Assembly (NCBI RefSeq): GCF_963853765.1
Contig: NC_088853.1
Span: forward strand, 52,948,001-53,012,000
Source of the DNA: Magallana gigas
Taxonomy: Eukaryota
Length of the DNA: 64,000 nt
Reading direction: 5' to 3'
Shown piece after piece: positions 14,201 to 64,000 of the stretch (positions within the stretch are counted from its first letter, which is position 1; every line of letters begins with the position of its first letter). The translations under genes and the position numbers were made by a program. Under the pieces are notes generated by a model. It ran no database searches. It was given only the letters and a program-made list of their open reading frames with translations, and was not told the origin of the DNA.

Positions 14201-16434
14201 TTTTTAAGGCACATTCCAAATTCGGTCCAATGATTGTCATCAGCAGACAAGGTCAAAAAGATTGTAGGGGGTCCAAGACATCCAACCATTGACAGTAAAT
14301 TATAAAGTGCATTTTTGAAATAAGTAATAGTCCCTTTTATGTTCTTCATGAACATGTATGAATTTTCCAACACATCAGAGGCCTGGCTACTATGTCTTAT
14401 GTCAGCAGCTGTAAATCTGTCATCTCTACTTTTACACATACGCATATGAACCCCTATTTCACTTTTAAGCAATGAGACATTGTAAGAAACACACGAGTGT
14501 AACAAATATGTTAAGTTATACCTAAACTCTGCATGTCTATTATATAACCTATATTTGAAATACATGGAAGGATTAACATGGATATCTCTGTTATGTCTTA
14601 AACCATTAACTCCAAATGGAAAGAGCCAGGGAAATGCCATTTCTTCTCCTGATGTTAGATCAAAAATGTTAACAGGTTGATGAGTAGAGCTTGAAACCTT
14701 AATTACCCCCTCTCTTAAAAAGGATGAAGCATTGAGTTTAGGTGTATTTACATCTAAAGGTGTCAAAGAGGAATAGTTAAAATTGCTATCTAAATGAGAT
14801 GATGATTCATACCCATTTAACAATTCATTATTTAGATCAGAAAGTATGTCAATACTTTGTTCAAGTTTGATTTCCTTATACAGTGGGTTGTTTTCTATAA
14901 GCCACGTAAGAGCATCTTTCAAATTTTTGCAACTGATAAAGTGTTTATTAGTGACGGCTGGTTCACTATGTAAAAAATGCACAGATAAAGTTGCATTTTC
15001 TTTAAAATTTCTGGGCAACTGATTAGCTATTTCCTGTACATTCATTGGCAAGTTTAGCACCAATCCCTTCTCAGCATACTGTCCACCGGGTAAAATATGA
15101 ATTGACAAAAAAACTTGAATTAAGGAAATCATGCGTTTCTCTAGTAATGATAGTTTTCTCAGTTCTGTTGGTACACGACCATTATCAAGGTTGTTAAGCT
15201 TAGTACTCAACGGACACATTTTATTTTGTTTTATTCTACCATGACAATAACGACAGAGAACATCATCATATGACAAGTTTAACATTTCTGCAGTAGCTGT
15301 AATTTGTTTCAGGTTAACTATCTGATCAGGAAATAAAATTCTATCACATCACCTGCAATAACTTGATGGCTTCTGTCGAATATGAAGTTCATATTCTGAA
15401 TTGTGAAAATCACAATTTAAGAATTCCACTGATGGTTCTAATGTTTCTACTGTACAAGTGTAACCTACATTAGTCATATTAAACCCATTAATTGTGTTGT
15501 TTTCATTTGCAACATCGGCATGATCAGAAATAATTGGAAATGTTTCTGCACATGTACTTACAAACATTTCATCTTGAGATGTGCGTTTTCTTTTACGAAT
15601 GGTGCTTTTTTTCAACTTAAAACTTTTTTCTGTCTGTTTTGCATATGAATGGAAAAAGTGAGGCTCAGGTTGCTGATGTACTTCATAATTAAAAATAACT
15701 GGGCTTAATTCATATGAAAATCCACCATAATCACGGTTTAAAAAATCAAGTATGCTGTGAATACTGTCAAAGTAAAGCAAAATTGCATTTCCAGATTCAT
15801 CCAACAAACCATCTTCATTTCTTTGATGTGAATCAAAAATAGCATACCTGTCATTTTCAAGATCACATATGACTGAAATAGTCAATCCCCTAGCTGTAAA
15901 CATTAAGTAAGGACTTATGATTGACGCCTGATACATGGAATTTTCAAGAGTATTTTGTCCGAATTCAAATTCATTATTGCCACCTACCCTACCGATATCG
16001 GTTTGAATTTCATAATCAGGAGAGTGCATGCTATGCGGCATCCAATCTCGTAGAGACCTTGGTAAATCATTGTGTGTAAGATATCCCGAAACACCCCGTA
16101 CTCTGGCAATATATGCGTACAACGATGTACCTTCGTTTACTAGATTATCTATATCACTAGAGGTAACATCGTTTACCCATGTTTGTGGGCGATCCCTCGA
16201 CATGCCAGTTAAGACTACAAGAGCTAAAAATGCAATAGCTGTACTTTGAAGTCCATTGAAAGGACAAAACTTTTCAATTCCTTGATGAATTCTACCCATT
16301 ACGTGTCTTACCATTTTGTCTGCGCCGATCTGACAGTTCCCACCAACTCGATTTGCCGCCAAATTCTTCCGAAAACAATGGAAAGTAGTCTTGGTCATTA
16401 AACAGCTTCGATTTGGTGTGATAAAGTCATGCAT
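11292..16434 (-). pseudogene. Helitron RepHel protein with an N-terminal herpes-tegument-like (C76/VTD) deubiquitinase domain; inactivated
   Basis: Rep motifs PPTIFLTLS, RIEFQNRGSPHMH (HUH) and YYVCSYLCK. PIF1 motifs GGAGTGKS, IIDEISMV, GDFFQLRPV, QFPLILCYARTIHKVQG and AYVALSRV. ORFs 16434-15349, 15285-13447 and 13416-12025 share one frame, separated by single stops (YCR*CDR, SS*EAAYR). Two further stops (12025, 11995) and a +1 shift in a T-run near 11970 precede 11921-11292. Confidence 0.93.
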
Positions 16435-17599
16435 CTGAATGATCGAGACTAGTCGAGAAGATTTACGGAATACTTCTATTTGGATGGAAATCGAACAAAA
16501 ACGATAACGTTTTATACTTTATTGATTCCTCAAGTAACTGTTTACGGCATAAAATAAGTTTAAAATCAGATATGTGTATCATCTATAATCAAAAATATAT
16601 TTGACATCATGTATATAAAACACAAAAATGTGTGTATCGTACGTTTTTATGCGATTACTAAAATTTATTTTTCTAAAAATAGGGACCTGTCGCTTTGTCC
16701 CTAGTAAATAATAAGCAATTTTATATATTCCATATAAAAAGGTTTATATTTTAAATGATGCACTTTATGGAAGTAAAAATAGATCTTATCTTGTAATTTT
16801 TTAAGAGAAAGAACCTTCTAATGTACAATCTATTTAATGTATAGTTAACTTTCAATTCTGAATAACTTCTCCCTCCTCAATCCCATACACCAAAACTTAA
16901 ACTTATATGTATAGAGCAGCCCGGTCCTCCGGGCTGCAATAAATTACTAAGCCTACCTTATTGTTAATATTAAATCCAAGAAACCCGAACAAATTATAAG
17001 TACCACCCCGCACGGACTGAATGAAATACACAACTAGCCTAACAGGTTTCCCAAGTTAAATTTAGAACAAAAGAAACGGAAGGGAGAATCGAGCTATAAA
17101 CAAGACTATGAACGAAACGATGAACGAGACAGGAAACGAAGACTGGGGCCCACCTATCTACCCAGGGGAGTGAGTTGACTCGAACCTTAGAGAAGATTCC
17201 ACGTCAACCACCGGATTTAAGTAAAATGTAATTTAGCTCGAACTGGTGTTTTCCAAATGATAATGTAAAACTACGAAACTGTCCGAATGTAAAAAAAAAA
17301 CCTAGAAAAACAATTAATATATAGAAGTGCAAAAAACTTTGAATTCCATCCTCATTATATTAACAATGACGAAAAATAAATGCCCGGCATAAGATGTAAA
17401 GAACTGCAATATATATAAGGTGTTAAAAAAAATATGAAAATTATTAGTAACAACTGTATTTTTAAAATTTCAAGATAATTCCAGAATGTCCAAAAACTCT
17501 AAATAGTAACCTTGTATCTGCATAAAACAGGGATAACCTCATGTCTTATAAAAAATTCTTATAAATTAAATGTGTATTTAAAAAAGATTTAAACGTTTT

Positions 17600-29377: not shown

Positions 29378-30931
29378 CCAAAGCATCCTTAGCCTCAGGG
29401 AATTCAAAGTGTGAAAATTTTGCAAAGGGAGATAATTAGGAATTTATGAAAATTTTCGAGAAATTTTCAAAAATCTTCTTATGAACCATAAGACCAGGAA
29501 AGCTAAAACTTGTGTGAAAGCATCCTCAGGTAGTGCAGATACAAAATTGTGAAATTCATGACCCCCGGGGGTAGGGTGGGGCCACAATGGGGGGTCGAAG
29601 TTTTACATATGAATATAAAGAGTAATTCTATAAAAATCTTCTTCTCAGAAACAAATCGGCCAGAAAAGCTGAAACTAGTGTGAAATCCTCCTCAGGTAGT
29701 GTAGATTCAATGTTGTGAAAATCATAACCTCCAGGGGTAGGGTGGGGCCACAATGGGTGGTCGAAGTTTTACATAGAAATATATCTTCTTCACATAAACT
29801 GATCAGCCAGGAAAGCTGACACTTGTATGGAAGCATCCTCAGGTAGTACAGATACAAAATTGTGAAAATCATGACCCCCGGGGGAAGGGTGGGGCCACAG
29901 TTGGGGGTTGAAGTTTAACATATGAATATATAGAGTAATTCTTTAAAGATCTTTTTCTCAGACACTAATTAGCCAGGAAAGCTGACACTTGTGTGAGAGC
30001 ATCCTCAGGTAGTGTAGATTCAAAGTTGTGAAAATCATGCCCCCCGGGGGTAGGTTTGGGCCACAGTGGGGGGTTGAAGTTTAACATATGAATATATAGA
30101 GTAAATCTTTAAAAATCTTCTTCTCAGAAACTAATCAGTCAGGAAAGCTGAAACTTGTGTGAAAGCATTCTCAGGTAGTGTAGATACAATGTTGTAAAAA
30201 TCATGACTCCCGGGGGTAGGTTTGGGCCACAATGGGGGGTCGAAGTTTAACATATGAATATAGAGTAAATCTTTAAAAATCTTCTTCTCAGAAACTAATC
30301 AGCCAGGAAAACTGAAACTTGTGTGAAAGCATCCTCAGGTAGTGTAGATACAATGTTGTGTAAAAATCATGACCCCGGGGGTAGGTTTGGGCCACAATGG
30401 GGGGTCGAAGTTTAACATATGAATATAGAGTAAATCTTTAAAAATCTTCTTCTCAGAAACTAATCAGCCAGGAAAGGTGACATTTGTGTGAAAGCATCCT
30501 CAAGAAATGTAGATTCAAAGTTGTGAAAATCATGCCCCTGGGGTGGAGGGTGGGGCCACAATGTGGGGTCGAAGTTTATATAAAGTAAATCTTTAAAAAT
30601 CTTCTTCTCAGAAACTAATCAGCCAGATTATTCTTTATAATTGTTAAGACTTTGGCCCCAGGACAATTCTTTGGCCTCACAAGAAGGTTCAGAGTTTGAT
30701 GTAGGTTTATATCACATATATAAACTATTGTGAAGGATTTTTTTGAGAACTGCAATACTCAACATATGATATGACTATAAAATCATCCTGTTAGAAATGG
30801 GACTTGTTTATAAACATAAGGATATCTAGGGGAAAATGTATTTTATTTATACAGGATCTACATGTATTGTACATTATCTAGATAGTTTGTATTATGACTC
30901 CATTAAGCTGATTTTATCATACCTATTGTTC

Positions 30932-34825: not shown

Positions 34826-37800
34826 ATAATCTGTACAGATATGGTGTGAATTACCATTCATGAAAAAATTAATGCATTATTTGAACTTTTAAAATGAAAA
34901 TTTAAAAATGACATCCTTATTCAGCACTTCGGTTTTATTGATCAAAGCACTTGTACAAATTCTAATTACTTGTGATCATTTTAGAATCATGTTAATTAAA
35001 ATTTTCAGGGATGAGACCCATATGTCTGGGATAGAGGAAATATGTAAAAAAAAAAAGGAGAGTCTTTGGTGGAAAATACACAAAGCAGCTTTATAAATCC
35101 ATTTGAGTAAGCATGAAAATAAACTATGATTAGTTTGAAATCCTTGGTTAAATTAATTGTTTACTTTTTGTTTGATTTCAAACGTACCGGTACATTTTTG
35201 AAATTGGAAAAGGTGTTAATAAATAAAAAATTATATGCTGGATAAAATTAAGGCATGTTGATTGTTTTGGTAGTTCCTAAATAACTTACTGCGTTATTTA
35301 TGTTTTAATGAGAGACACAGGTGATAGGGCTTAGTTTATTTAATCAGACTTCTAATCATGGTTTTTTTGTATTGTGTACAGCCTTACCATTTCTGAGGGT
35401 AATCATGAATCAGAAGATGACGATAATTATTCTTATGCAGACTTTTTTGTTTTGATTTGACTTATAGGTAATGGTAGTTGGTGGGGTTTTTTTACCATTG
35501 ACTTCACATAATGAATTTTTTTAATTAGTTTTCATCTAAAATTCGCTTTAGCAAAAGAAATGTTGACAAATTGGTGTTGGGACAGCCTATAGTCTGGGAC
35601 AGCTAGACTACTCAGCTATGTTAAGGGCGTCCATACAAAAATAGCGATATTTATCACATAAAATGTTAGCCTTTGAACAATCTTAGTATTCTACTCCAAA
35701 CATTTGTTAAACAAAGTGATATTTTATCGATTATACAATTTAAATAATTTGTTATCGGATGAGCAATTTTTGAGTCTCTTGGGAATACCCTGTCACGTGA
35801 TACTGCTAAAAATAGATGAACCAGGAATAATACGAAAAAATGCAAAGTGCAGGGGCATAACATAAACAAATCTGTTTCTAACTTGTAAAATGAACCTTCA
35901 AAATTTCGAAAAGTGCTGGGAGCTTAAACTATTCAAGTAAGAACAATTATTAAATTCAATGTAAACTGTGTATGAACAGCAATTTACTGGGATTTCCCGC
36001 AATTAACGCTTATTTATATGAAATGCGTAGCGACTTCATACAGCTCCCAGCACTTCTTGATATAATAGGGATACAATTGTAATACATGGAAATTTTCAAT
36101 ATATTTGATCAAATGTATGCCCTTGCACTACTGCATTTTATCTGACCCACTTTACTTTCAGCGTCATTCGCGTGAAATTCAAACGCAACACTGACTAAGA
36201 TCATGATTTTAATTTTTATTCTTAAAATAATTTAACGCTGTGAATTTCACTAAAATAATGTTAAAATGTTGTTTCTGTTCACACCAATCATCATTATAAA
36301 ATTGTTGAAATTGGAAAAAAATAATTCCATCAGTTGCCTTTATTGGGGGGGGGGGGGGGGGGGTGTAAGTGTTGAGTTTGTAATTTACACATTTATGTTT
36401 CATAATAATTTATGTCACTATGCTAGTGAATAAATTCTTTTAATGTATTATCAGATTTACTTTTAATCATAATTGATATTTTAGTACTAATTAAAGATAG
36501 CAAGAAGAAACAATATATCAATATTATCAAGAATTTATTTTGATAATCAACTTTACAAATACTATAGATTGCTTTTCTGTGACAAACTGTTCAACAAGAT
36601 TAGTGTTTTCTGATTTTTAGTATTTTTCTGTCATAATGTGTAATTTATGGAAATTGACAACTCTTCTTGCACACTACATGTTCTTCTCTTCTGTCTTTTT
36701 GATATTAGGAGGTAGTCCAGTTGATAAGAAAACCAATACCTGAAATGATGAATATATATCAATTTCAAATTTCATTTCAATAAATATCAATGCAAATTAT
36801 TATAATAGGTTACATAAGTATCATTATCAATATGATATTAAAAAACAACAAACTATGCATGAAGTTGAAGTTAGTGAGTAAAAGAAATATTTATATACAT
36901 TTGTAGTACCTACTTTTAATCAACATCCCAAGAATTAAGTGTTTTCAGTGGACCATCTACTGCCTAAGTAACCCTGAAAATGAATAATGTGTCATAATTA
37001 GCAAACTATTGTGTTAAAGATAGCATGAAAATGAAACATTACACTATTATTGGACATATTAATGGCGGTTTCAATTTCAGTGATATTACAACAGGCATAA
37101 TCAAATGTTTACTTTTCAAAATGTGTGGAAATTCAGTTTGAACACACTTTAATTTTGTCTTAAATAATATTAATTAGATTTTCATAAAAGAAGGCTGAAT
37201 AAAATAATACATTTCCATTTACTTAAACAACTTTACAATCTTGTCTAATATGTAAACGGTGTGACCGTTGGACCGAGCGCAGATTTAACACAGTGCAGTT
37301 TGATTTTTGTATAATAAAATCTATTTAAAACGCACACAGTAGGATTCGCCAGCATATGGTTGCCTACTCAAATCATTCGTCAAAGTTAAACTAAACGTCG
37401 CGTGCTCAGTCTACATTATGACGTCATATTTCAGACGTAAAACGTTCAAGTTTTGTCTTCGGAAATAGCCGAAGAGAGTTACGTGATTCCGATTTTTTTT
37501 TTATTTCTTCTTTCATTGTTCGTCAATTTAATTCATATGAATGCCAATGTAATAAAATTGAATACTTTATTCAGTATCTAAAAGATCAGGTCCTTGACGT
37601 TGATGTTTTATTTTCCATCTGATAATTTGATAAGACATACATAGAACAAGTCGTGTGTCTTGGTTGAAGCACTATTGAAACTTATCTGGATTCCTTTTTA
37701 ATTTCTTTTAATTCAAATTACCTTCTTTTGAAACACTGGAACTTATTTAATCGAGTTTAGGGGCAATAAATATCGATAAGTACCAGTCAATCAATGATCG

Positions 37801-38682
37801 AACTAACTTTTTAAAAACAAAATGGCTGCCAACATGGCGGCGCCCAGGGTTGGAAGAAATTTTTTTTGGCCTTAGTACCCCTGATTCAACTTTCATTTTT
37901 CACTGATTTTCTTACCATTAATCCTCGCTTCGCGAGGCGCTCGCTGCGCTCGGTATAATCATTCCAGATCCTCACAGTAATCTTTGTAGTGCTAGCACAT
38001 ACAGTGTTTGGCCATGGCCTTTTTATTGTGTACTTTGAACATGGAGGAAATGCGATCTAATATTATCGCGATATGAGACCAGTAAAAAGCTACAATGAGC
38101 TTCAATGCTCTTTATGATCAAAACTAGCAAAACGTAGAACAATTACTTTGCCTGACTGAGTCACCAAACTGATATTTGAACACAATATTACATGAAAAAC
38201 AAATGTATACAAAATCGAAGCCGAGGAATTTCACCTCGTTTCCGTTCCATCCAACGATATTAAATAATATAAAACAATATCTAGGGGAAGTACAGATAAA
38301 TCCTACCTTGTTCAGTTGAATCCTATGCCGATTTCTGTCCACGCTGGTTGTAAACGAGTTAAATTCCGAGATATATCACTGAAGTCCACATGTTTATTCT
38401 GATCACAGCTGCAAGCGTCGATATGACGTAGTCAGCCTCGACACGTCATCAGACGACTTAGGAATTTCATGATTTCGCGAGATATAAGAATAGTTTATGA
38501 TTTTATTTCAGTACACCTTTCTTGAACCATTCAAACCCAATAATTAATCATATTCATTTTGGTAGATGTTTGTTAATTACCGAAATACCCATATCTCGTG
38601 AATTCTCATGAATAAGGGGCGGGGCTTATGCAAATCTTTCTAAATCACACGTGGTAGAATTCTTAGACCTTCCTTAACATAC

Positions 38683-39068
38683 CTGAGTGTAGGTCTTAAC
38701 CTCAATCACTTTACGAATTAAGGGAATGTCCGTATGGTATCTGGTCACATGGACCACACTGACCGAAACAGAACTCATCTTTAATAATTCCAACAGAATC
38801 TAGCAAACGAATGAGAGCTTGACGGTAATGCGCTGCAATTTATCAACTTGGTACCTAAATGACCGCTGTTGCCTAGTTTCGGCAGTTAGATATGACGTCA
38901 TTTTCAGTTATGACGTCAGAATCTTGTACTTGAGTCCGCGCTAAGAGTTAAGCTAGGCTCTTCTAGCCAGGCTACCATGACAAACGGGTTTAAGCAATGC
39001 TTACTTCATATAGAGTCTTATAGAGTGCAAAACATTTATTCGTTTTTTTTAATGGTAGAAATAAAAAA
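38683..39068 (-). promoter_or_regulatory. Diverged inverted copy of the viral RING-gene promoter (two CRE palindromes, TATA-like, Inr) plus its coding start
   Basis: Reverse complement aligns with 59510-59830. TGACGTCA at 38893-38900 and 38911-38918. ATG 38778 encodes MSSVSVSVVHVTRYHTDIPLIRKVIEVKTYTQ, followed by a GTATGT donor. Confidence 0.8.
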
Positions 39069-39121
39069 ACAAAAACAAGGGCACCGCTAAGCGGAGCATC
39101 CCCTCGCGTCATGAGTTATTG

Positions 39122-39997
39122 TGTAATAAGACTGGTACCCCAAGAGGGGGATAAACCCTGCTCCTGGGACAGTCGGGTACGGGGGTGACTACCAATTATC
39201 CCTAATTGCTGATTAGTAGTCAGCAAAAAAAATGAAGTCAACAAAGATCAAAGTTTTAAATTGATAACAAATTTATTTGCAAAAGATGAATGTAGATGAG
39301 AAACTGGTACCTCCAGTTAAACAAATCAATGAAAAATATGTATGAAAATGACAAAAATTAACCATGAAAATATTATAAATTTTACTTTAGAGTTTAAATA
39401 AGAAACATGAACATTTTCCTACACGTTTTTATTATAATTTAAATCGGGCTCGAAATTCAAAATATTAAAATAAACTATGGCGCCTAGTCTGAAGAAGATA
39501 CACTTCTGAGAGAAAAGAGTTAGCTTTTATTGAACACTGCCTTACCATCATTTATACCGAAGTCGGTATAAAGTGCTTCGAACGGGAAGATGAGCTTACC
39601 CGAGAAGTAGGCTGTTATAAGCAGTGGACGCAAGGCGAGCAGTCCGCCGAACTACTCGAAACACGCCTTTATATAGTGTGAGTACACAAAAGAAACGATC
39701 AGCCAACCATGAAATGTAACCATACCCCTTATTGGATAAAATTACAGGTGATAAACTTATCAGGTAAACCCTAGTGAAATACGTTTTGAAATAGGGACCA
39801 ATATGGCTGACCTGTATAAACAAAATAGCACTTGAACCGTAATGTAAGTGTAAAATAGCTTATTACAAGAATTGAAGTTACTATTTAAGTATCTTATATT
39901 GAATCTTATATTGAATTATCCCTAGCTTAGTTAATTGTTTATGCAATTTATGATTTTTAATAAAATAAACATATGGTATAGGATGAGTTTTATCACA
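39122..39997 (-). mobile_element. Probable 3' LTR of an LTR retrotransposon
   Basis: On the minus strand a polypurine tract ggggggaggaa (40008-39998) abuts TGTGATAAAAC. A TATATAAAG (~39670) and an AATAAA (~39275) follow, and it ends CTTATTACA at 39122. No second LTR is visible, so the left end is inferred. Confidence 0.5.
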
Positions 39998-40089: not shown

Positions 40090-40634
40090 TCATCGTAATA
40101 GCCTCAAACCTTGTGCATTGCCATTTACATCGAACACCATCACTTTATCACGATTCACAGTTGCGTTTGTTCTGGTAGCCCTTTCTTCATCAAACAGGGG
40201 ATTTCTCTCACACTCCTTTAGCAATCGTTTTCTCTTTTCTTTTTCCTCTTCTCTCTTTCTTGACCTTTTCTCTGTCTGTGTCATTTTCCTCTGAAGGGGT
40301 GTGTCTCCAGGTGAAATATAGGAACGGTTCTGTACCATGATGTCTACCAATAGACCGTCCACATTATTCTCTCGATGAGTGGCGCTTATGTGTTTTCTGG
40401 CTGATGCTTTTGTTCTAAAACATTTCTTGCACGATTTGCATTTGGCTAACTTTCTCTTCTCATGTGGATATCTATCCAGTGGTCAAGGAGTTGGCCGTAT
40501 CTCCTGAAGTGAGTACTGTTTGGACACTCCTCCACTGGACATGTCATTCCAAGGGGAGGGAAAAATGGACGCTGCTTCTCCTCAAAAGTCTTCAATTCAC
40601 TTTGGAATTCATTCAAGTCGAATTCAAACTTCAT
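40090..40634 (-). pseudogene. Two-C2H2-finger protein upstream of the PPT, frameshifted
   Basis: CPVEECPNSTHFRRYGQLLDHWIDIH, then in a shifted frame KCKSCKKCFRTKASARKHISATH…NRSYISPG and a basic coiled tail. Confidence 0.55.
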
Positions 40635-40839: not shown

Positions 40840-40980
40840 AGTCGTACCAAAAATATTCGATTTTTGTTGAGTCGTACTTAGACACATTCGGAATTTTTTT
40901 GTTAAGTCGTTCTTAAAACGGTTAAGGTTTTAGTGAATTCGTACTTAAAGCCATCCGCATTTTGTTAAGTCGTACCAAGA
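40840..40980 (+). repeat. Degenerate ~35-bp tandem repeat (aagtcgtac core)
   Basis: gtcgtac/gtcgttc/ttcgtac recurs five times between 40841 and 40976. Confidence 0.6.
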
Positions 40981-41119
40981 TTTATTCCATTTTTTAAAAT
41001 TTTTGAATTAGTTACTCTTGCATTTGGTTTAAGAACTCTGCCTTTTACAGGAACATCTAGTTTTACTCTCGACATGAACGGAAGACCCACTCGTTGTTTT
41101 GCAACTAGCTTTGCTCTAG

Positions 41120-45428: not shown

Positions 45429-46696
45429 TTATTTCTTGCATACAAAATTAAATTTTGCTGTACAGTGGACATCGACCCAGCCAACGTATTGGACATGTAT
45501 AGCAGCACAGTGCTCAATGCCACCACCATTGTTGGGTTCCGTTTTATGCCAGTTGTTGTAGCCCAGTTCCTCTGCATTGGACATAGAAACATAACGACCT
45601 TCCTTCTGAATGTCACTGTATCCCAACCAGACACCTTTAGTATAACCTGGAATTAAACAGAGAACGGTAATTGTATTTTCCTTAAGTTTTCCATACATGT
45701 AATACAATTCATAATGTAGCCCTCTTCCGTTGAGGGGGTAAATTATCGAATATTCAGCATTGAAGTTTTCTATGTCATATGTAATGTAATGAAATGTAAT
45801 GTTTTAAACGCCCTTCATTAGCGCAAACCATGACGTATATAAATCTCTAAAATACGATTTGATACATATTATTCATTTCACTTGCCATTTAATTTTTTTT
45901 TATAGTTCCTGTATATAATATACAAATAAATATTAAAAAAACATTTTCAGCATGTCAGATGATTGTCAACAATAAATATAATCCTTAAATTTTATATTAC
46001 CTCTATGTTTGATTTGTAAATCCACCCATGTCTCTTCTATTTTGTTTTGGAATTCCAGCAGACCAGCACCAATGGAGATACAGGATATCTGTTTATAAAA
46101 TAATAAACTACTAGTTTACTTTGATTTCAGTTGAAAAATTTAGAAACATTAGGTCGCGCAGGTACACATTCTACTTAATGAACGAACGATATATAATGCA
46201 TAATAAAATACTCATTCTCACCATAGCGTCTTTAAATGTTGCGTCCCCGGATGAAAAATAATAGCAGCTGTTCTTAAATTGTGCCCATCCTTTTTGACAA
46301 ATTTTACCTTTAAATACAAATTATATTTATTTTGTTCAATATCGGTAATGAAAACTGACATTCAAATAAGGCAAATGAAACTGAAATATTAAGTATATGA
46401 ACGCATTATGGTACGTGTTTTAAAATTCCGTAAAGAAATTTTCGTTACATTTTATTGATGCATTACATGTGCTTCCTTAAAGACCTTGCTTATAGTAGAA
46501 GTGTCTAGTGAGCAAAAAAGAAAGGTTTACGATAAACAAATTCAAAGACCATTTAAAACTATTATACAATTTAAACACTTCATTAGATTCATTGTTTGCA
46601 TACGTGTTGAATAGAACGTGCCAGCAAATAAATACCTGCTGTAGTTTTCGCTAGGACAATGGTTAACACAAATAACAAATGTCGTGAAATATCCAT
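45429..46696 (-). CDS. Secreted single-domain C-type lectin (perlucin-like), 163 aa, intact, 5 exons
   Basis: Exons 46696-46636, 46504-46467, 46308-46222, 46088-46001 and 45646-45429, all GT-AG and phase-compatible (492 nt). Signal peptide MDISRHLLFVLTIVLAKTTA; CQKGWAQFKNSCYYF, VWLG, EPN, EHCA, WVDVHC, FVCK. A TA tract lies just upstream (~46760-46780). Confidence 0.92.
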
Positions 46697-56988: not shown

Positions 56989-57786
56989 AGTACTCGAACA
57001 ACTTTTTTTTGGTTCCTGTAATGACCTTACAACTTAATTTGTGTGTTGTGTCATTATTTTTAGCTGCCAGATTTGTGTTCCTCGAAAGAAGAATCTCCAT
57101 GTATAAAAGAGGAAGAGGTATTTGTATAGATTTAGACAATAAAATGATTTCTTTGGTGATACATTTTAATATATTTAACGGTGGCAAATTTGCAGATCTG
57201 CAATGATAGCTACCTTCATAACCCACATGAATCATCAAAGAGAACATTTTATTGTTTATATTTACATCTTTCTTTAACATCTTTCTTGATAAATGGATTG
57301 TTAAAAGTAAGTAAAATTAGCTAAAGTTATAGCCAATGTACATCAGAACGTTAGCTAAAAAAAAACAGCCACATTTTTCTTTTGCGAATTTGCAAGTCTG
57401 ACATTATGCTTATTTCGTAGAGTCCATGATTTTTATTAGGTCGCTGTTAGTTTAGACCAATCGATAAACAGGGCTAGTAGATTTAAGTCCTATCAGTTTC
57501 TACAGAGCTATGAATTACAATTAATTTCCATTAGAAATATAAGGAATCATTCTTGATGAATGTAAATATATGCAAGTAAGTAGTATAAGGCGCCTAGCTT
57601 GGGGGTTCAACTGAGTGCACTTTTTATGCAAATGAGGTAAAAAACTGGGTTTAAGGTTGAAATGAGTTTTATTGAACAAGAACATCAAAAATCATGAAAC
57701 AAGTGAAGAAATAAGCGCAAAAAAAATAGAAAACATAGAATGACTCTCTGGAAATTACATTGTTCAGAAATTCTCTTGCAATTTTG

Positions 57787-58506
57787 TCAGATAAAGTTCA
57801 TACGAGTGGGAGAATCCACGAACACATTTTTTTTGTTGACTTTCATCATACGGCCTGGTTTTTTCTGCTCCGTTTTCATTTCCTCGTCCCAATCTTCATT
57901 GGATTTCTGGGTTTTTGCTTTTTTCTTGTCTTTGACTCCTTTCCCTTTGTTGGTGGGAGGGTGATTTTCTTTTTCTGGGCAGTCCTGAGCCTCGTGTTCT
58001 TGGTCTGCCCAGTATTTGTTTTTGAGATTTTCTGGGCAATCTTTCATCCAATGGCCTTCCTTTTTGCAGATGAAACAATTGTTGTTTGAAGGTCTACTGT
58101 AGTTAGTACTCTGCTGGGAAGTCGAGCCCCGGTTGTTTTCCTTTGTAGGGCAATCCGGCGAATAGTGACCTGGTTCTCCACAGGTGTAGCATGAGCCGGG
58201 TTTTTTCCCCTGTGTAGTTTTTGGCTGCGTAGTTTTGTTCATTTCGTCCAGTTTGTTTAAGATCAAGCTAGTATGTTTTCCTATTTCGTCACTCATCAGA
58301 TGGAGACTGTTGAGAATTCCTTCCTGGGTCGTGGTAATGATCCCAAAGTCTTCCTTACTGATCACTGAATTGTAAGCAGCCATCTCTAAGTTGACTGGGT
58401 CCTGGGTCTCTGTCACTAGTGATGGATCGTAATAGCCCATTCCACTAGACATAGGATCTTGGCTATCGAGGAAGTTTTTAGACGTCATGATTTGCAATGT
58501 GCACAA
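57787..58506 (-). CDS. CCHC zinc-knuckle protein (two intact knuckles, one degenerate), acidic N-terminus and Lys-rich C-terminus
   Basis: CYTCGEPGHYSPDC and CFICKKEGHWMKDC (CX2CX4HX4C); open 239-aa frame; the true start may be ATG 58488 or 58452. Confidence 0.8.
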   Translation of the reverse strand: MCTLQIMTSKNFLDSQDPMSSGMGYYDPSLVTETQDPVNLEMAAYNSVISKEDFGIITTTQEGILNSLHLMSDEIGKHTSLILNKLDEMNKTTQPKTTQGKKPGSCYTCGEPGHYSPDCPTKENNRGSTSQQSTNYSRPSNNNCFICKKEGHWMKDCPENLKNKYWADQEHEAQDCPEKENHPPTNKGKGVKDKKKAKTQKSNEDWDEEMKTEQKKPGRMMKVNKKNVFVDSPTRMNFI

Positions 58507-58516
58507 GTCCTAGAGG

Positions 58517-58538: not shown

Positions 58539-59011
58539 TGAACTGCTTTTTTAATATTTTTTATAATTCTATCAAGGAAAAAAAATTGATGATGAGCGAA
58601 ATATTGAGTCTTACCTTTGAGGGTTATCAATTAGTAACAAAATGGAATGCAGATATGAACGAGGAAAAACAGAAAAAAATATTGAGGGTGTTAGCTTTGG
58701 CTCGGAACATCACCAGTTTGAATTTTCCTGCCCACATACTGTTGATATTAGCAGTAGAAAATCCTTTCCCCGGAAGACTAGCCACAATTTATTGGATTTG
58801 CGAGGGGGCCAAGATTCAATTACTCGAGAAATTAACAGGCGTCTCCTACAAGGATTATCAGAACTTCGGGTATCTGAGATGCATGTTCACCCATCAGGGG
58901 AGAGCTCGTCGTCGAGTGATTTCACAAATAGACAATATGAAGATGGTGGCTTTGGAATTTCTATACCTGAAATTGAAAACTCAGGCCATAGACGAAGAAA
59001 ACGGAGTGTAA
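58538..59011 (+). CDS. Hypothetical protein (157 aa; likely start ATG 58589/58592)
   Basis: Open frame inside a gene-dense viral-type cluster; no recognised motif. Confidence 0.5.
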   Translation: MNCFFNIFYNSIKEKKLMMSEILSLTFEGYQLVTKWNADMNEEKQKKILRVLALARNITSLNFPAHILLILAVENPFPGRLATIYWICEGAKIQLLEKLTGVSYKDYQNFGYLRCMFTHQGRARRRVISQIDNMKMVALEFLYLKLKTQAIDEENGV

Positions 59012-59169
59012 AGTTTAATATGGACATTCAAGTGTTGGAAATACCATACGAAGATAGGACAAGTGAATGGATGACTTTGGCAAATGACCGATTTCGTTTT
59101 CAAAGAAGAATTCTACAGACTGCAATTGTTTTAGAGCCTATGTTAAAAAGACATTTGTTAAATAATTAA
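58642..59169 (+). CDS. GADD34/ICP34.5/DP71L-like PP1-recruiting (eIF2-alpha phosphatase adaptor) protein
   Basis: C-terminus RRKRSVKFNMDIQVLEIPYEDRTSEWMTLANDRFRFQRRILQTAIVLEPML has an RVxF-type motif followed by W..LA.DR.RF.RRI. The start codon is uncertain (58642 or 58880). Confidence 0.85.
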   Translation: MECRYERGKTEKNIEGVSFGSEHHQFEFSCPHTVDISSRKSFPRKTSHNLLDLRGGQDSITREINRRLLQGLSELRVSEMHVHPSGESSSSSDFTNRQYEDGGFGISIPEIENSGHRRRKRSVKFNMDIQVLEIPYEDRTSEWMTLANDRFRFQRRILQTAIVLEPMLKRHLLNN

Positions 59170-59189: not shown

Positions 59190-59540
59190 TTGTTCCAATG
59201 TATAATTTGTTTGAAAATAATAAAAATAATTTTATTTCATATAATTTCTACCATTTAAAATAACGAATAAATGTTTGTTCCAATGTTTGTTTGCTGAAAA
59301 ATAATAAAATTTTGACATTTTATGTCATAGTTTATTTAATTTCTACCATTTAAAAATAACGAATAAATGTTTGTTCCAATGTTTGTTTGCTGAAAAATTA
59401 AAAAAAATAATTTTATTTCATAGGTTTTTTAATTTGTACCATTTAAAATAACAAATAAATGTTTGTTCTAATGTTTGTTTGCTGAAAAATTAAAAAAAAA
59501 AATTATGTCATAGTTTTTTATTTCTACCATTTAAAATAAA
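59190..59540 (+). repeat. AT-rich ~90-95-bp tandem repeat (three full units plus partials)
   Basis: ttt(c/g)taccatttaaaataac(g/a)aataaatgtttgttc..atgtttgtttgctgaaaa begins at 59245, 59340, 59433 and 59521. Confidence 0.85.
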
Positions 59541-59657
59541 TGGTTTGCACTCTATAAGACTCTATAGGGAGTTTGCATTGCTTTAAACCCGGTTGTCATG
59601 GTAGCCTGGCTAGTAGAGCCTTGCTTAAGACTTGGCACGGATTCAAGTACAAGATTC

Positions 59658-59727
59658 TGACGTCATAAATGAAAATGACGTCATATCTAGTGATAAATAG
59701 CAGCGCACTTCCGCCCAGCACTCATTC
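59658..59727 (+). promoter_or_regulatory. Pol II promoter: two CRE palindromes, TATA-like ataaata and Inr tcattc
   Basis: TGACGTCA at 59658-65 and 59676-83, ataaata at 59693-99, tcattc at 59722-27, ATG at 59759; conserved in the paralogous module at 38.7-39.0 kb. Confidence 0.65.
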
Positions 59728-59758
59728 GTCTGCTAGATTTCTCGTAAATCGCCCAAAG

Positions 59759-61004
59759 ATGAATTCATTTGGAATTAGGCATTTTTATACGGATGTTCCT
59801 AATATTCGAAGAGTGTTGGAGATTGTAACATACCAGTGGGATGGGGAGAGCTACGTAAGGATTTCTTCGGAGGCTGTGAGTCTGTTTCAGGCCCGGGATG
59901 CTCCCCTGTCCCCCCTGGAGAGGCAAGGAAGAGAGCAGGACTTGGGGAGAGTTGACCTCTTGCCACCGCCGCCGCCTCCCCCAGGACCCGTTCCTTCACT
60001 GGAGGACGTCGTTGCGATGATGGAGAGGAGGCAGCAGGAGCAGCGGCAGTCAGCCCCCTCGACGCCGTCGCCTCCCCCACCGCCAGCGCCCAGAGTCAGT
60101 AGGGGACCGGCAGCACTCTTCCGGCGGGTCCGGAGTGTTGCCAGGAGGGCCATTCCCTACCGGAGGGGTGGCCCGGGGGTGCGATTTTCTTTGCCTCCCA
60201 GGTCTGCGGCGCCATCGCCTTTTGTGAGCCCTCCTAGGAGAGTTCCGGCCATTCGGCCGCCAGGACCGGGTATCACCGTAAGTAATGTTTTAATATATTT
60301 TACATTTATAATAATGTGATAGTATGATTGATTTTTGGTATAATATTTTAATTGGTTTTTTTTTTAGACCACCAGGGAGCCCATCGTGATTCCGGACTCA
60401 CCGGAGAGTCCCGACCCCTCCCCACCTGCCAGTCCGGGGGGTTACTCTCCGGTGAGCCCAGGCTACAGTCCGGCACCATCGCCGCCAGGGAGCCCTCTGC
60501 GACCAGCGCCATACCGCCCTGCACCACCACCAGCTGCAGCGGCCTTGGGGAGATCTCCAAGCCGACCGGTCCCACCCAGCCGTCCTGCCCCTCAGCTGCC
60601 CTCGGGATTTTTTTGAGAACCATTTTGAGAACGGCCACCCCTCCCCTGTACCTCCATACGAGGAAGCCGGAGGATCCGAGGCGGCACTTCACCATCGTCC
60701 CCAGCTGGGGGGTGAAGGTGGCTGAGGAGGAGGAGAGCCGGGGGGAGTGTGTCATCTGCTTCCGAGAAGACGCCCACATGCAGGTAAATAAAACATGAAA
60801 TGTTTTGTTATAATTTCATAATAAAATGCTTTGTAATTACAAAATACTTTTTTTTGAAAAAAAGGTATTTATGGATTTGCTTTTTCATTTTTCCAGATCA
60901 AGTGCCGCAGCTGCAGCCAGCAGAGGGTATGCTGCAAGTGTGTCCCGGGGGTGTACCGGAACATGAACCCCTGCCCCCTGTGCCGGTCCTTCGGAGAGCA
61001 GTAG
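59759..61004 (+). CDS. Spliced Pro/Ser/Arg-rich protein with a C-terminal all-Cys RING finger (putative E3 ligase); one -1 frame break
   Basis: Exons 59759-60277, 60368-60783 and 60897-61004; phase-0 introns GTAAGT..TTTAG and GTAAAT..TTCCAG. Spliced end CVICFREDAHMQ|IKCRSCSQQRVCCKCVPGVYRNMNPCPLCR. The frame shifts at a T7 run (60608-14). Confidence 0.8.
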
Positions 61005-61087: not shown

Positions 61088-61184
61088 AATAGAAAAAATG
61101 TGTACAAAAAGAAAAACACCAGTGGTCACTTACATGCACACACTTAAATAGAAAAGGTGAAGGTTTTTTATTTCATAAGTGAAG

Positions 61185-61829
61185 ATGTATTCTTACGATA
61201 CACTAGACCCTTTTAAATTGAAACATGAATTTACCATGGTGGTGGCGGGTCCTTCAAAATCGGGAAAAACACATTTTGTTAAAAAGTTAGTAGAAAATAG
61301 ACATTGGATTTCCCCTCCCCCCGAAAAAATCATATGGTGTTACCGAGAATGGCAACCCGCTTACGAATCTTTACAAGATCAAGTCAAGTTTATACGCAAT
61401 ATTCAAGAAGACGACGAGAAATTAGTGGCTGATTTCAGTATTCGTCACTTGTTAATTTTTGACGATATGATGGGAGGCAAAGCCATCGAGTCTATCGTCG
61501 ATTGGTTTACTCGCAAAGCTCATCATAGGAATACCAGTGTGATTTACATTACTCAAAATGTATTTGATCGAGCAAATCAACATCGTACTATTAGTCTCAA
61601 TGCTCATTATTTGGTACTGTTTAAAAATCCTCGAGATAAATCTCAAGTGACGGTGCTGAGTCGACAATTAGATATGCCTCATTTAATGTCTGCTTATCAA
61701 GAGTCTATTAGTATTCCTCACGGTTATTTGCTTGTAGATCTCAGTCCACAAACTCCAGATGAATTGAGATTAAGAAGTCAAATGTTCGATACCCTAAGTG
61801 TCTATATGCCTCGAGAATATAAATATTGA
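61185..61829 (+). CDS. Polinton/adintovirus genome-packaging ATPase (A32/FtsK-HerA-like)
   Basis: LKHEFTMVVAGPSKSGKT (Walker A), PPPEKIIWCY.EWQ, LLIFDDMM (Walker B), HHRNTSVIYITQNVF, RTISLNAHYLVLFKNPRD; intact. Confidence 0.92.
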   Translation: MYSYDTLDPFKLKHEFTMVVAGPSKSGKTHFVKKLVENRHWISPPPEKIIWCYREWQPAYESLQDQVKFIRNIQEDDEKLVADFSIRHLLIFDDMMGGKAIESIVDWFTRKAHHRNTSVIYITQNVFDRANQHRTISLNAHYLVLFKNPRDKSQVTVLSRQLDMPHLMSAYQESISIPHGYLLVDLSPQTPDELRLRSQMFDTLSVYMPREYKY

Positions 61830-61867: not shown

Positions 61868-62902
61868 ATGGCACGACAAAACAAAGTGTTGAGACTTTTG
61901 AAACTTTTATATGGAGAAAAAGATCCACAGAAAAGGCAGGAAATCATCGAATTAAGCCGTAAAACCTTAATGAAATGGTTTCTGATAGGAGCTAAGAATT
62001 TACTGAAAGGAACTATTCCTGTCGACAAACAGACTCAACGGTTTATTGAAAAACACCGGGATGATTTGAAAGTGATTGCTGACAAAAAAGTCAACGAAGA
62101 TAACAGATTGAAAGCCGTATTGAAACGAGGAGGAGCTGGGTTTTTAGGAGGGGTCATCATTCGTAATTTATTGAAATGGAATTTGAAAAAAGAAAAAATG
62201 GCTCAGCCTGGAAAGAGCAAATCGAAGAAAGCCATCAAAAAGAAATTAAGCAAAAAAGATTTTGTGAAGACTCCTCCCCTTAGGAAAGACTTGCCTGATT
62301 GGGTTCAGGAGCAAGTAGACTTGTATCGTCAAGATCAAAATCAGAAAAATCAAGGTGATTTAGAAGCCACTCTTCCCTATGCTGAGGATGATACCCCAAC
62401 TTTTCCCATTATCAATGCTAGGGCTATCCAGAAAATGGATAGGGCCATGCAAGGTCCTATAGGAGCGGCCAGAACCTCAGATAATGTAATGACTTCTACC
62501 CCTATTAAAGCAACTCAAGCTCCCTCTTTGTTTGATGATGTCATTACTATTGATCAGTCCTCTATTAAAGCACCATCTACCCCTACACTCTCGAAAAAGT
62601 CTCCAAATGAGTCACCGGCCTTAACATATTTCTGTCCCCACGATGGGGTCGGATTCAGACTGAAGGAAAATTACGATCGTCACTTGGCTACCGCTCATAA
62701 CCCCGCTTGGATTGAAAGTCAATCGAAAAGGAAAATAGTTCCTGTACCAGACATGTCTAACTTTACTTTAGGTTTCAAGAAACCTAAACTAAATTATTAT
62801 TGTCCCGACTGTCACATGGCTTTTAGACTTAAAAGGGAATACGAAAAACATAGACAAAGATATCACCCAGTAGCTGAACCATGGGTCCAGAATAAAGGAT
62901 AG
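61868..62902 (+). CDS. Conserved Polinton-type basic protein (NLLKG.IP…GG.GFLG) extended with two C2H2 zinc fingers
   Basis: N-terminal AKNLLKGTIPVDKQTQRFIEKHRDDLKVIADKK…KRGGAGFLGGVI; C-terminal CPHDGVGFRLKENYDRHLATAH and CPDCHMAFRLKREYEKHRQRYH; open frame. Confidence 0.7.
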   Translation: MARQNKVLRLLKLLYGEKDPQKRQEIIELSRKTLMKWFLIGAKNLLKGTIPVDKQTQRFIEKHRDDLKVIADKKVNEDNRLKAVLKRGGAGFLGGVIIRNLLKWNLKKEKMAQPGKSKSKKAIKKKLSKKDFVKTPPLRKDLPDWVQEQVDLYRQDQNQKNQGDLEATLPYAEDDTPTFPIINARAIQKMDRAMQGPIGAARTSDNVMTSTPIKATQAPSLFDDVITIDQSSIKAPSTPTLSKKSPNESPALTYFCPHDGVGFRLKENYDRHLATAHNPAWIESQSKRKIVPVPDMSNFTLGFKKPKLNYYCPDCHMAFRLKREYEKHRQRYHPVAEPWVQNKG

Positions 62903-63174: not shown

Positions 63175-64000
63175 GAAATTAAAAATTTATTAAAAATCTT
63201 CTTCTCGGAAACTAATCAACCAGGAAAGCTGAAACTTGTGTGGAAGCATCCTCAGGTAGTGTAGATTCAAAGTTGTGAAAATCATGATCCCTGGGGGTAG
63301 GCTGGGGCACAATGGGGGATCGAAGTTTTACATAGGAATATATAGAGTAAATATTTAAAAATCTTCTTCTCAGAAACTAATCAGCCAGGAAAGCTGATAC
63401 TTGTGTGGAAGTATCCTCAGGTAGTGTAGATTCAAAGTTGTGAAAATCATGACCCCCAGGATTAGGGTGGGGCCACAATGGGGGGTCGAAGTTTTACATA
63501 GGAATATATAGAGTAAATCTTTAAAAATCTTCTTCTCAGAAACTAATCAGCCAGGAAAGCTGAAACTTGTGTGGAAGCATCCTCAGATAGTGTAGATTCA
63601 AAGTTGTGAAAATCATGACCCCCTGGGGTTGGGTGGGGCCACAATGGGGTGGTCGAAGTTTTACATAGGAATATATAGAGTAAATCTTTAAAAATCTTCT
63701 TCTCAGAAACTAATCAGCCAGAAAAGCTGACACTTGTGTGGAAGCATCCTCAGATAGTGTAGATTCAAAGTTGTGAAAATCATGACCCCCAGGGGTAGGG
63801 TGGGGCACAATGGAGGGTCGAAGTTTTACATAGGAATATATAGAGTAAATCTTTAAAATTCTTCTTCTCAGAAACTAATCAGCCAGGAAAGCTGAAACTT
63901 GTGTGGAAGTATCCTCAGGCAGTGTAGATTCAAAGTTGTGAAAATCATGATCCCTGGGGGTAGGGTGGGGCCACAATGGGGGGGGGGTGTTAAAGTTTTA
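63175..64000 (+). repeat. Cg170/HindIII-type ~166-bp satellite array (~5 monomers, runs off the window)
   Basis: Marker (c/t)atcctca at ~63248, 63414, 63578, 63745 and 63910; same monomer as 29400-30627. Confidence 0.92.

Follow-up and report, generated by a model that had tools for sequence, protein, structure and literature searches.

What is the short stretch of DNA that, in a 64-kb window of the genome of the oyster Magallana gigas, repeats in inverted orientation and 20.6 kb away the upstream region and coding start of a gene set among virus-type genes? The window is the whole stretch of DNA analysed, and all coordinates refer to it. Copy A is the module at 38887–39068 on the minus strand with the coding start that follows it, and copy B is the module at 59514–59758 on the plus strand with its gene. 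We consider it quite probable that copy A is a dead stub, left by an accessory gene of a second subfamily of low-copy, Maverick-like endogenous DNA elements, and that the module shared with copy B is the promoter of this gene.

Two copies of one module

Copy A has the following parts, given in the direction of its own strand:

39030–39070 (−), end of an AT-rich repeat unit, the left limit of detectable homology (match to the copy B array)
38920–39029 (−), conserved upstream block of 110 bp (98/110 identical to 59545–59656 of copy B)
38893–38918 (−), paired palindromic CRE/ATF-type sites, 18 bp from start to start (pattern search)
38847–38886 (−), ~40 nt separating CRE2 from the TATA-like box, without counterpart in copy B (alignment gap)
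38779–38845 (−), TATA-like ATAAAT (38843), initiator-like TCATTC (A at 38812) and 34-nt leader (found as motifs, function presumed)
38689–38778 (−), codons 1–30 of a gene of the A subfamily; homology stops at 38689 (alignment to P0029–P0035)
38676–38684 (−), splice-donor-like CAG/GTATGT (8/9 of the consensus)

A blastn comparison of the window with itself gives two matching blocks separated by a gap of 40 columns. In the first, 38887–39068 (−) aligns with 59514–59689 (+) at 87.4% over 183 columns (E 8e-59), close to the ~85% estimated by eye in an earlier, sequence-only reading of this DNA. As that reading held, the block takes in both sites of TGACGTCA, a CRE/ATF-type site intact in both copies, as well as the end of the AT-rich repeat unit, where 39030–39070 is 88–94% identical to three of the 92-bp units in the copy B array. 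The second block pairs 38797–38845 with 59691–59739 (85.7%). The insertion reported between the blocks exists, although its length is 40 nt rather than ~45, and the reported match of TATA-like and initiator motifs beyond it is borne out: they lie 31 nt apart in both copies despite the indel upstream. The longest pair of inverted arms is 107 nt long at 92% identity, 20,589 nt apart.

Both copies follow one order: end of the AT unit, 110-bp block, two CREs, ATAAAT, TCATTC, leader and AAAG-ATG, with a leader of 34–35 nt. An in-frame TAG at 38802–38800 makes the copy A leader non-coding. The spaced pair TGACGTCA-N10-TGACGTCA is found in the window only at 38893 and 59658, even with 2 mismatches, where 0.02 are expected by chance and none of 100 shuffles reached two. 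Single TGACGTCA sites number 9 in the window (0.47 expected), five of them outside the module.

The downstream peptides RYHTDIPLIRKVIEVKTY and HFYTDVPNIRRVLEIVTY are homologous, as had been proposed, sharing 9 of 18 residues (33/54 nt; 9/18 third positions) with a local score of 60 that none of 10,000 shuffles reached. Also upheld is the remark that the non-coding part is better conserved than the coding part: identity is 130/143 (91%) in the former vs 33/54 (61%) in the latter (Fisher p=3e-6), and runs at 94, 89, 97, 86 and 78% along successive segments of the module before reaching 61% in the coding DNA.

Copy A, its relatives and the cluster of copy B

Searching 1.84 billion representatives with phmmer gave 7 hits, two of them true relatives (P0002 and P0003); the other five (P0004–P0008) are repeat proteins that share only a T-Y-x-W-D/N-G-like word, and were dropped. 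Of 2,766 candidates a profile search retained 3, among them P0029 and P0030, which start nearly as copy A does. These two and five of the six other members of the P0030 cluster make up the seven relatives P0029–P0035, which are identical to residues 1–30 of copy A at 26–29 of 30 positions; one of the seven is UniRef K1RWW8, from Magallana gigas itself. After residue 30 the seven continue with RWN and copy A reads TQVC and a stop, so that copy A is a 5′ stub cut at 38689 and could encode a peptide of 34 residues at most. When residues 31–130 of four relatives were compared with the 8 kb that follow copy A, nothing matched convincingly: the highest scores were 42–50 against shuffle maxima of 39–64, and only P0003 exceeded its own maximum (46 vs 39). 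P0029 and P0030 run on into the Pro-rich and helical layout of copy B, including a helix resembling LEDVVAMMERRQQE. The longer A-type relatives, compared here as protein sequences only, match copy B in shifting frames and thus look decayed. Judged from these alignments, copy A is a ~380-bp, 3′-truncated stub of a second subfamily and not a duplicate of copy B.

Other features lie near copy A. At 39590–39675 (−), TATATAAA is followed after ~20 nt by an AGT-rich start-like stretch and a donor-like GGTAAG, and may be another promoter and first exon. One kb upstream of copy A, on the same strand, is a frame-broken, intronless C2H2-like ORF (40090–40634), which showed no similarity to the copy B cluster and whose ESM Atlas matches score 0.92–0.94 (low recognition). 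Four repeats spaced 32–35 nt apart lie at 40861–40997.

Copy B lies in a cluster with these features:

57787–58509 (−), zinc-knuckle ORF (Pfam zf-CCHC, E 1e-12)
58636–59169 (+), DP71L/GADD34-like PP1-binding ORF (PDB 9nb9_B, DP71L, E 3e-4)
59242–59539 (+), AT-rich tandem array of 92-bp units (3.2 units)
59514–59758 (+), candidate promoter module of copy B, with CREs at 59658 and 59676, TATA-like box at 59693 and initiator A at 59724
59759–61004 (+), predicted gene of copy B: beta-rich N-terminal domain, Pro-rich middle and Cys-rich RING-like end
60278–60367 and 60784–60896 (+), predicted introns of this gene (GT..AG, GC 0.16 and 0.19)
61185–61829 (+), A32-type packaging ATPase (Pfam Pox_A32, E 9e-7)
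61868–62902 (+), 344-aa ORF with C2H2-like motifs, after the ATPase

The order is thus zinc knuckle, DP71L-like ORF, 92-bp array, module, the gene that it heads, ATPase and 344-aa ORF: 5.4 kb of compact ORFs ending at a 165-bp satellite from 63190. The Pox_A32 match scores 29 bits (cut-off 22.8), and the ATPase adjoins copy B only. The DP71L-like ORF, which carries RVxF-type and W..A.DR.RF motifs when aligned to DP71L, falls below the cut-off of Pfam PP1c_bdg (E 0.038). The copy B stretch or part of it was found in 20 of the 24 sequencing runs listed, from 9 studies; 9 of the 24 bear the label oyster metagenome. Two further observations concern this part of the window. Long ORFs at 58589–59011 and 58636–59169 (+) overlap in different frames and are a possible overprinted pair, the second of them bearing the DP71L-like motif; and the window holds two arrays of a 165–166-bp satellite (29494–30626 and 63190–63983), ~85% alike.

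In the copy B gene the predicted exons have GC of 0.61–0.66 vs 0.16 and 0.19 in the introns; the frame is broken in exon 2, and the Pro-rich frame stops at 60614. A RING-like Cys pattern can be seen by eye across exons 2 and 3, which as separate exons have no Pfam match; splicing and a RING/E3 function are putative. The N-terminal domain of ~45 aa, which the sequence-only reading took for an unnamed one, indeed could not be named convincingly from Pfam, PDB or fold comparisons: the sole Pfam match was PilO (E 0.048, in one of 7 members), a profile against PDB reached E 0.91 at best, the best ESM Atlas match was 0.83, and Foldseek with the predicted model found nothing at E<=0.001. That model, a weak one (pLDDT 60.7, pTM 0.27), places strands at residues 2–10, 18–27 and 32–42. 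A word-based protein search with the copy B N-terminus, at near and longer lengths, returned no match; 11 window proteins had no exact match in the protein collection; IMG/VR gave none to the 31-nt motif, the ATPase, the profile or the ORF after the ATPase, nor did the JGI contigs to the profile.

RNA was checked on copy B only, in two raw runs read at 1 in 100 (~12.9 million records from each). They showed no transcription start peak at the initiator, where depth was <1, and no splice joint in the gene; depth on exon 1 stayed at or below 2 (0–1.5), and one RNA-library contig crosses intron 1 unspliced. The X21 reads on the ATPase are mostly <90% alike and so come from other relatives; as a separate observation, those at 61180–61800 are mostly first-mate-plus, which is antisense in most stranded libraries. 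In X24, 97% of placed reads run on unlike sequence, mostly as poly-A/T matches.

A proposed promoter design and alternative explanations

We infer that the module would be a host RNA-polymerase-II promoter of the accessory gene. CREB/ATF/Jun-type bZIP factors are specific for palindromes such as TGACGTCA, and host factors of this class may bind its two sites. The TATA-like box, with the initiator 31 nt downstream, would set the transcription start, and the 34–35-nt leader would lead to AAAG-ATG and a spliced, Pro-rich, RING-like regulator resembling a viral immediate-early gene. The position of the 40-nt indel, between core and CREs, is one at which promoters would tolerate a change in length. 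Host factors could thereby switch the regulatory gene on early, as CREB does at the major immediate-early promoter of HCMV; this inducibility, like the factors assigned to the sites, is read from motifs. Copy A would be an independent insertion, later truncated, and the fact that it lies inverted, 20.6 kb away from copy B, would have no functional meaning.

Module and coding start are joined in both window copies and in two sequences from outside. The gene call of P0002 starts at an ATG inside CRE2 and equals the conceptual leader of copy B at 27 of 29 residues, although its coding start is 62% identical. In run X6, contig 7 links the CRE side to a coding part (44 differences in 250 nt) through a spacer which, like that of copy A, is ~40 nt longer than in copy B; an oyster contig with the longer spacer means that the indel is either a polymorphism or a deletion in copy B. 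Summed contig depth, a rough bound and not a copy number, is 319 and 224 on the module, 185–238 on exon 1 and 328–546 in most ATPase bins, with identical-copy contigs at 96–138; the contig evidence comes from the 24 of 144 loose ends and 16 of 242 pieces listed. The family of related elements that the sequence-only reading supposed is found, with module and coding start common to its viral-type members, and the case that it had named against itself, a high-copy MITE unlinked to the coding start, did not turn up. Being low in copy number and tied to the coding start, the module is not a MITE. That an independent high-copy MITE landed beside similar coding DNA is highly improbable: the region is full of small repeats and an unrelated contig contains an exact 28-nt match to the CRE pair, but depth on the module is near that of the coding part, and no terminal inverted repeats bound 38689–39070 among 25 of 37 inverted pairs listed.

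The unrelated contig is JGI contig L001, a case that speaks against the linkage. At 545–643 it has the exact 28-nt match to the CRE pair of copy B and nothing else of the module, together with a second, degenerate CRE pair followed by TGATAA; otherwise it is unlike the window. A relaxed CRE-pair pattern was found in 6 IMG/VR stretches of 2 families, none otherwise window-like, a number near chance by rough estimate. Five IMG/VR contigs (L002, L003, L005, L006 and L007) carry, at 301–420, repeated intergenic units of CRE-N9-CRE followed by GATAAAT or GATGAAT. The units end in a GC-rich stem-loop with an AT loop, and occur twice per contig in two contigs; their grammar is similar to that of the window module, without homology.

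The higher conservation of the module, compared with the coding DNA, admits two explanations. The sequence-only reading proposed selection on a CREB/ATF-responsive switch, a point that the alignments do not bear out: conservation of the CRE pair (32/33) does not significantly exceed that of the upstream block (98/110; p=0.30), and the CRE octamers likewise do not stand out from the rest of the module (p=0.36), so that selection on the CREs is unproven; lone TGACGTCA sites are in any case over-represented in the window. The only change inside the pair is in its spacer. The alternative to constraint on the whole module is that the promoter block was recently exchanged between subfamilies by recombination, its identity reflecting shared recent ancestry, and to this we assign a real, if minority, chance. 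It would account for identity that is high inside and outside the motifs, the CREs not exceeding the rest significantly, and passages of PMC8502044 propose recombination between adintovirus lineages. Yet P0002, which represents a third lineage, shows the same contrast (27/29 in the leader, 62% in the coding part), so that swaps would have been needed repeatedly, and identity tapers through the leader with no single drop point. Constraint and exchange stand at about even odds as the cause; the contrast repeated in P0002 may tip the comparison slightly towards constraint.

The paired palindromes could instead be a site of DNA transactions, tyrosine-recombinase-like or belonging to an origin or to a packaging signal, and not sites for transcription factors, which we regard as unlikely. 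They form 9-bp arms around an 8-nt asymmetric spacer to which the change within the pair is confined, in each copy the pair can fold into a hairpin (z −2.99 and −1.66), and in a viral contig family of no relation to the window CRE pairs stand beside an origin-like stem-loop. However, any repeated palindrome folds so, and 16 of 200 shuffles reached the fold of copy A; a TATA-initiator-ATG series follows at fixed spacing, and the Pfam scans of ORFs found no recombinase nearby. A paired ACGT site of the GMEB/PIF kind was rejected: 16 nt separate the CpGs in both copies, whereas an excerpt of PMC4274154 gives 4–11 nt between the two CpGs of such pairs. It is very unlikely that copy A has been co-opted, its promoter, 32 codons and the donor CAG/GTATGT serving as first exon to downstream oyster sequence. 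Its promoter motifs are intact, the strong donor follows the breakpoint at a distance of 7 nt, and there are, by eye, acceptor-like sites near 36970 and 36740; such donors occur, however, at 0.33 per kb per strand, and none of the 26 downstream ORFs with a length of 62 aa or more (30.7–38.4 kb) has a Pfam match. We give hardly any credence to the view that the two copies are the inverted ends of one 21-kb element. Their orientation fits, and their spacing is within the 12.7–24.6 kb range of vertebrate Mavericks (as stated in part of PMC8097293), but the ends are only 87% identical with a 40-nt indel, viral genes lie on both sides of copy B, and between the copies there is a C-type lectin exon but nothing that matched a viral hallmark. 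The 78 ORFs of at least 62 aa overlapping 30.7–57.8 kb gave 2 Pfam matches, the lectin exon and the zinc knuckle, so that the interval between the copies is host and repeat DNA. The former is the last exon of a host C-type lectin gene (45432–45803 (−), E 1e-9); elsewhere in the window, at 11292–16518 (−), is a Helitron Rep/helicase in four frames split by stops (Helitron_like_N E 2e-28, PIF1 E 4e-29).

Relation to known viral systems

The copy B cluster resembles Mavericks/Polintons (adintoviruses) in its A32-type ATPase with a further ORF, its small accessory genes and its many decayed copies. According to the passages available in the sources, accessory regions flank the core of vertebrate Mavericks (PMC8097293), every mollusc genome surveyed has Mavericks (PMC10294476), and transcription of the elements is reported from corals (PMC11131425). 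No PolB or integrase was matched by Pfam in 19 ORFs or in the 78 ORFs of at least 62 aa of 30.7–57.8 kb, nor were capsid proteins or a protease in the same scans, Pfam being of limited sensitivity for these. With polymerase, integrase and capsid absent from the scans, Maverick membership is not established; the cluster stops at the satellite at 63190, so that PolB and integrase may have been lost. Terminal inverted repeats with (AGT)2 ends and a 6-bp target duplication, as in Mavericks, were not recognised, and no repeat is shared with the flanks of copy A. Left of the viral cluster, at 57579–57633 (+), AGTAGT is followed by the octamer-like ATGCAAAT; this could be a left terminus, but AGTAGT is a frequent hexamer and no right end is in view. 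If spliced, the two predicted introns of the copy B gene would depart from intact vertebrate Mavericks, which are intronless in the same passages of PMC8097293.

The putative promoter has analogues among viruses. The HTLV-1 LTR is a CRE-driven viral promoter. CRE-driven immediate-early promoters such as that of HCMV may be compared with the module in having repeated CREs upstream of a pol II core, of which there are two here, and no sequence homology is expected. Part of PMC4055774 reports that CREB binding drives HCMV reactivation. Early genes of WSSV have a TATA box and an (a/c)TCANT initiator, and the module is like their promoters in its CTCATT initiator, a TATA-like box ~30 nt upstream and an ATG within 20–85 nt, as far as excerpts of PMC1550435 describe them; it differs in that the box of both copies is ATAAAT and not consensus TATA, and WSSV belongs to an unrelated virus family. 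The gene content suggests a second analogy, with herpesvirus ICP0 and ICP34.5 or ASFV DP71L, in that a RING-like gene would stand beside a PP1-recruiting ORF. In copy B the RING-like motif is C-terminal and, by eye, all-Cys. ICP0 is a spliced, Pro-rich RING protein. In mostly non-subscription literature, no paper was found that treats Mavericks with regard to promoters of the CRE type, RING genes or genes like DP71L. A CRE pair with TATA-like box and initiator in a Maverick-like family is apparently undescribed, and the maps of PMC8502044 or Repbase may show such genes.

Taken alone, the stub is a remnant of decayed viral DNA like many others in this repeat-rich oyster genome, and its value lies in comparison: with copy B and the relatives it outlines a compact promoter of CRE pair, TATA-like box and initiator, in a class of elements for which the literature searched showed no description of transcriptional control. 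If functional, the module would offer a handle on the activation of animal Mavericks, and would predict that stress such as heat or infection activates them in farmed oysters. A wider reading, which we put forward as speculative and rather doubtful, is that Maverick-like viruses of oysters have a conserved reactivation module in the style of herpesviruses, with a stress-sensing double-CRE promoter, constant across subfamilies, that drives a diverging spliced RING regulator beside a DP71L-like cofactor undoing the eIF2-alpha shut-off. If true, this would be a defined host-signal switch for exit from latency in an animal Maverick.
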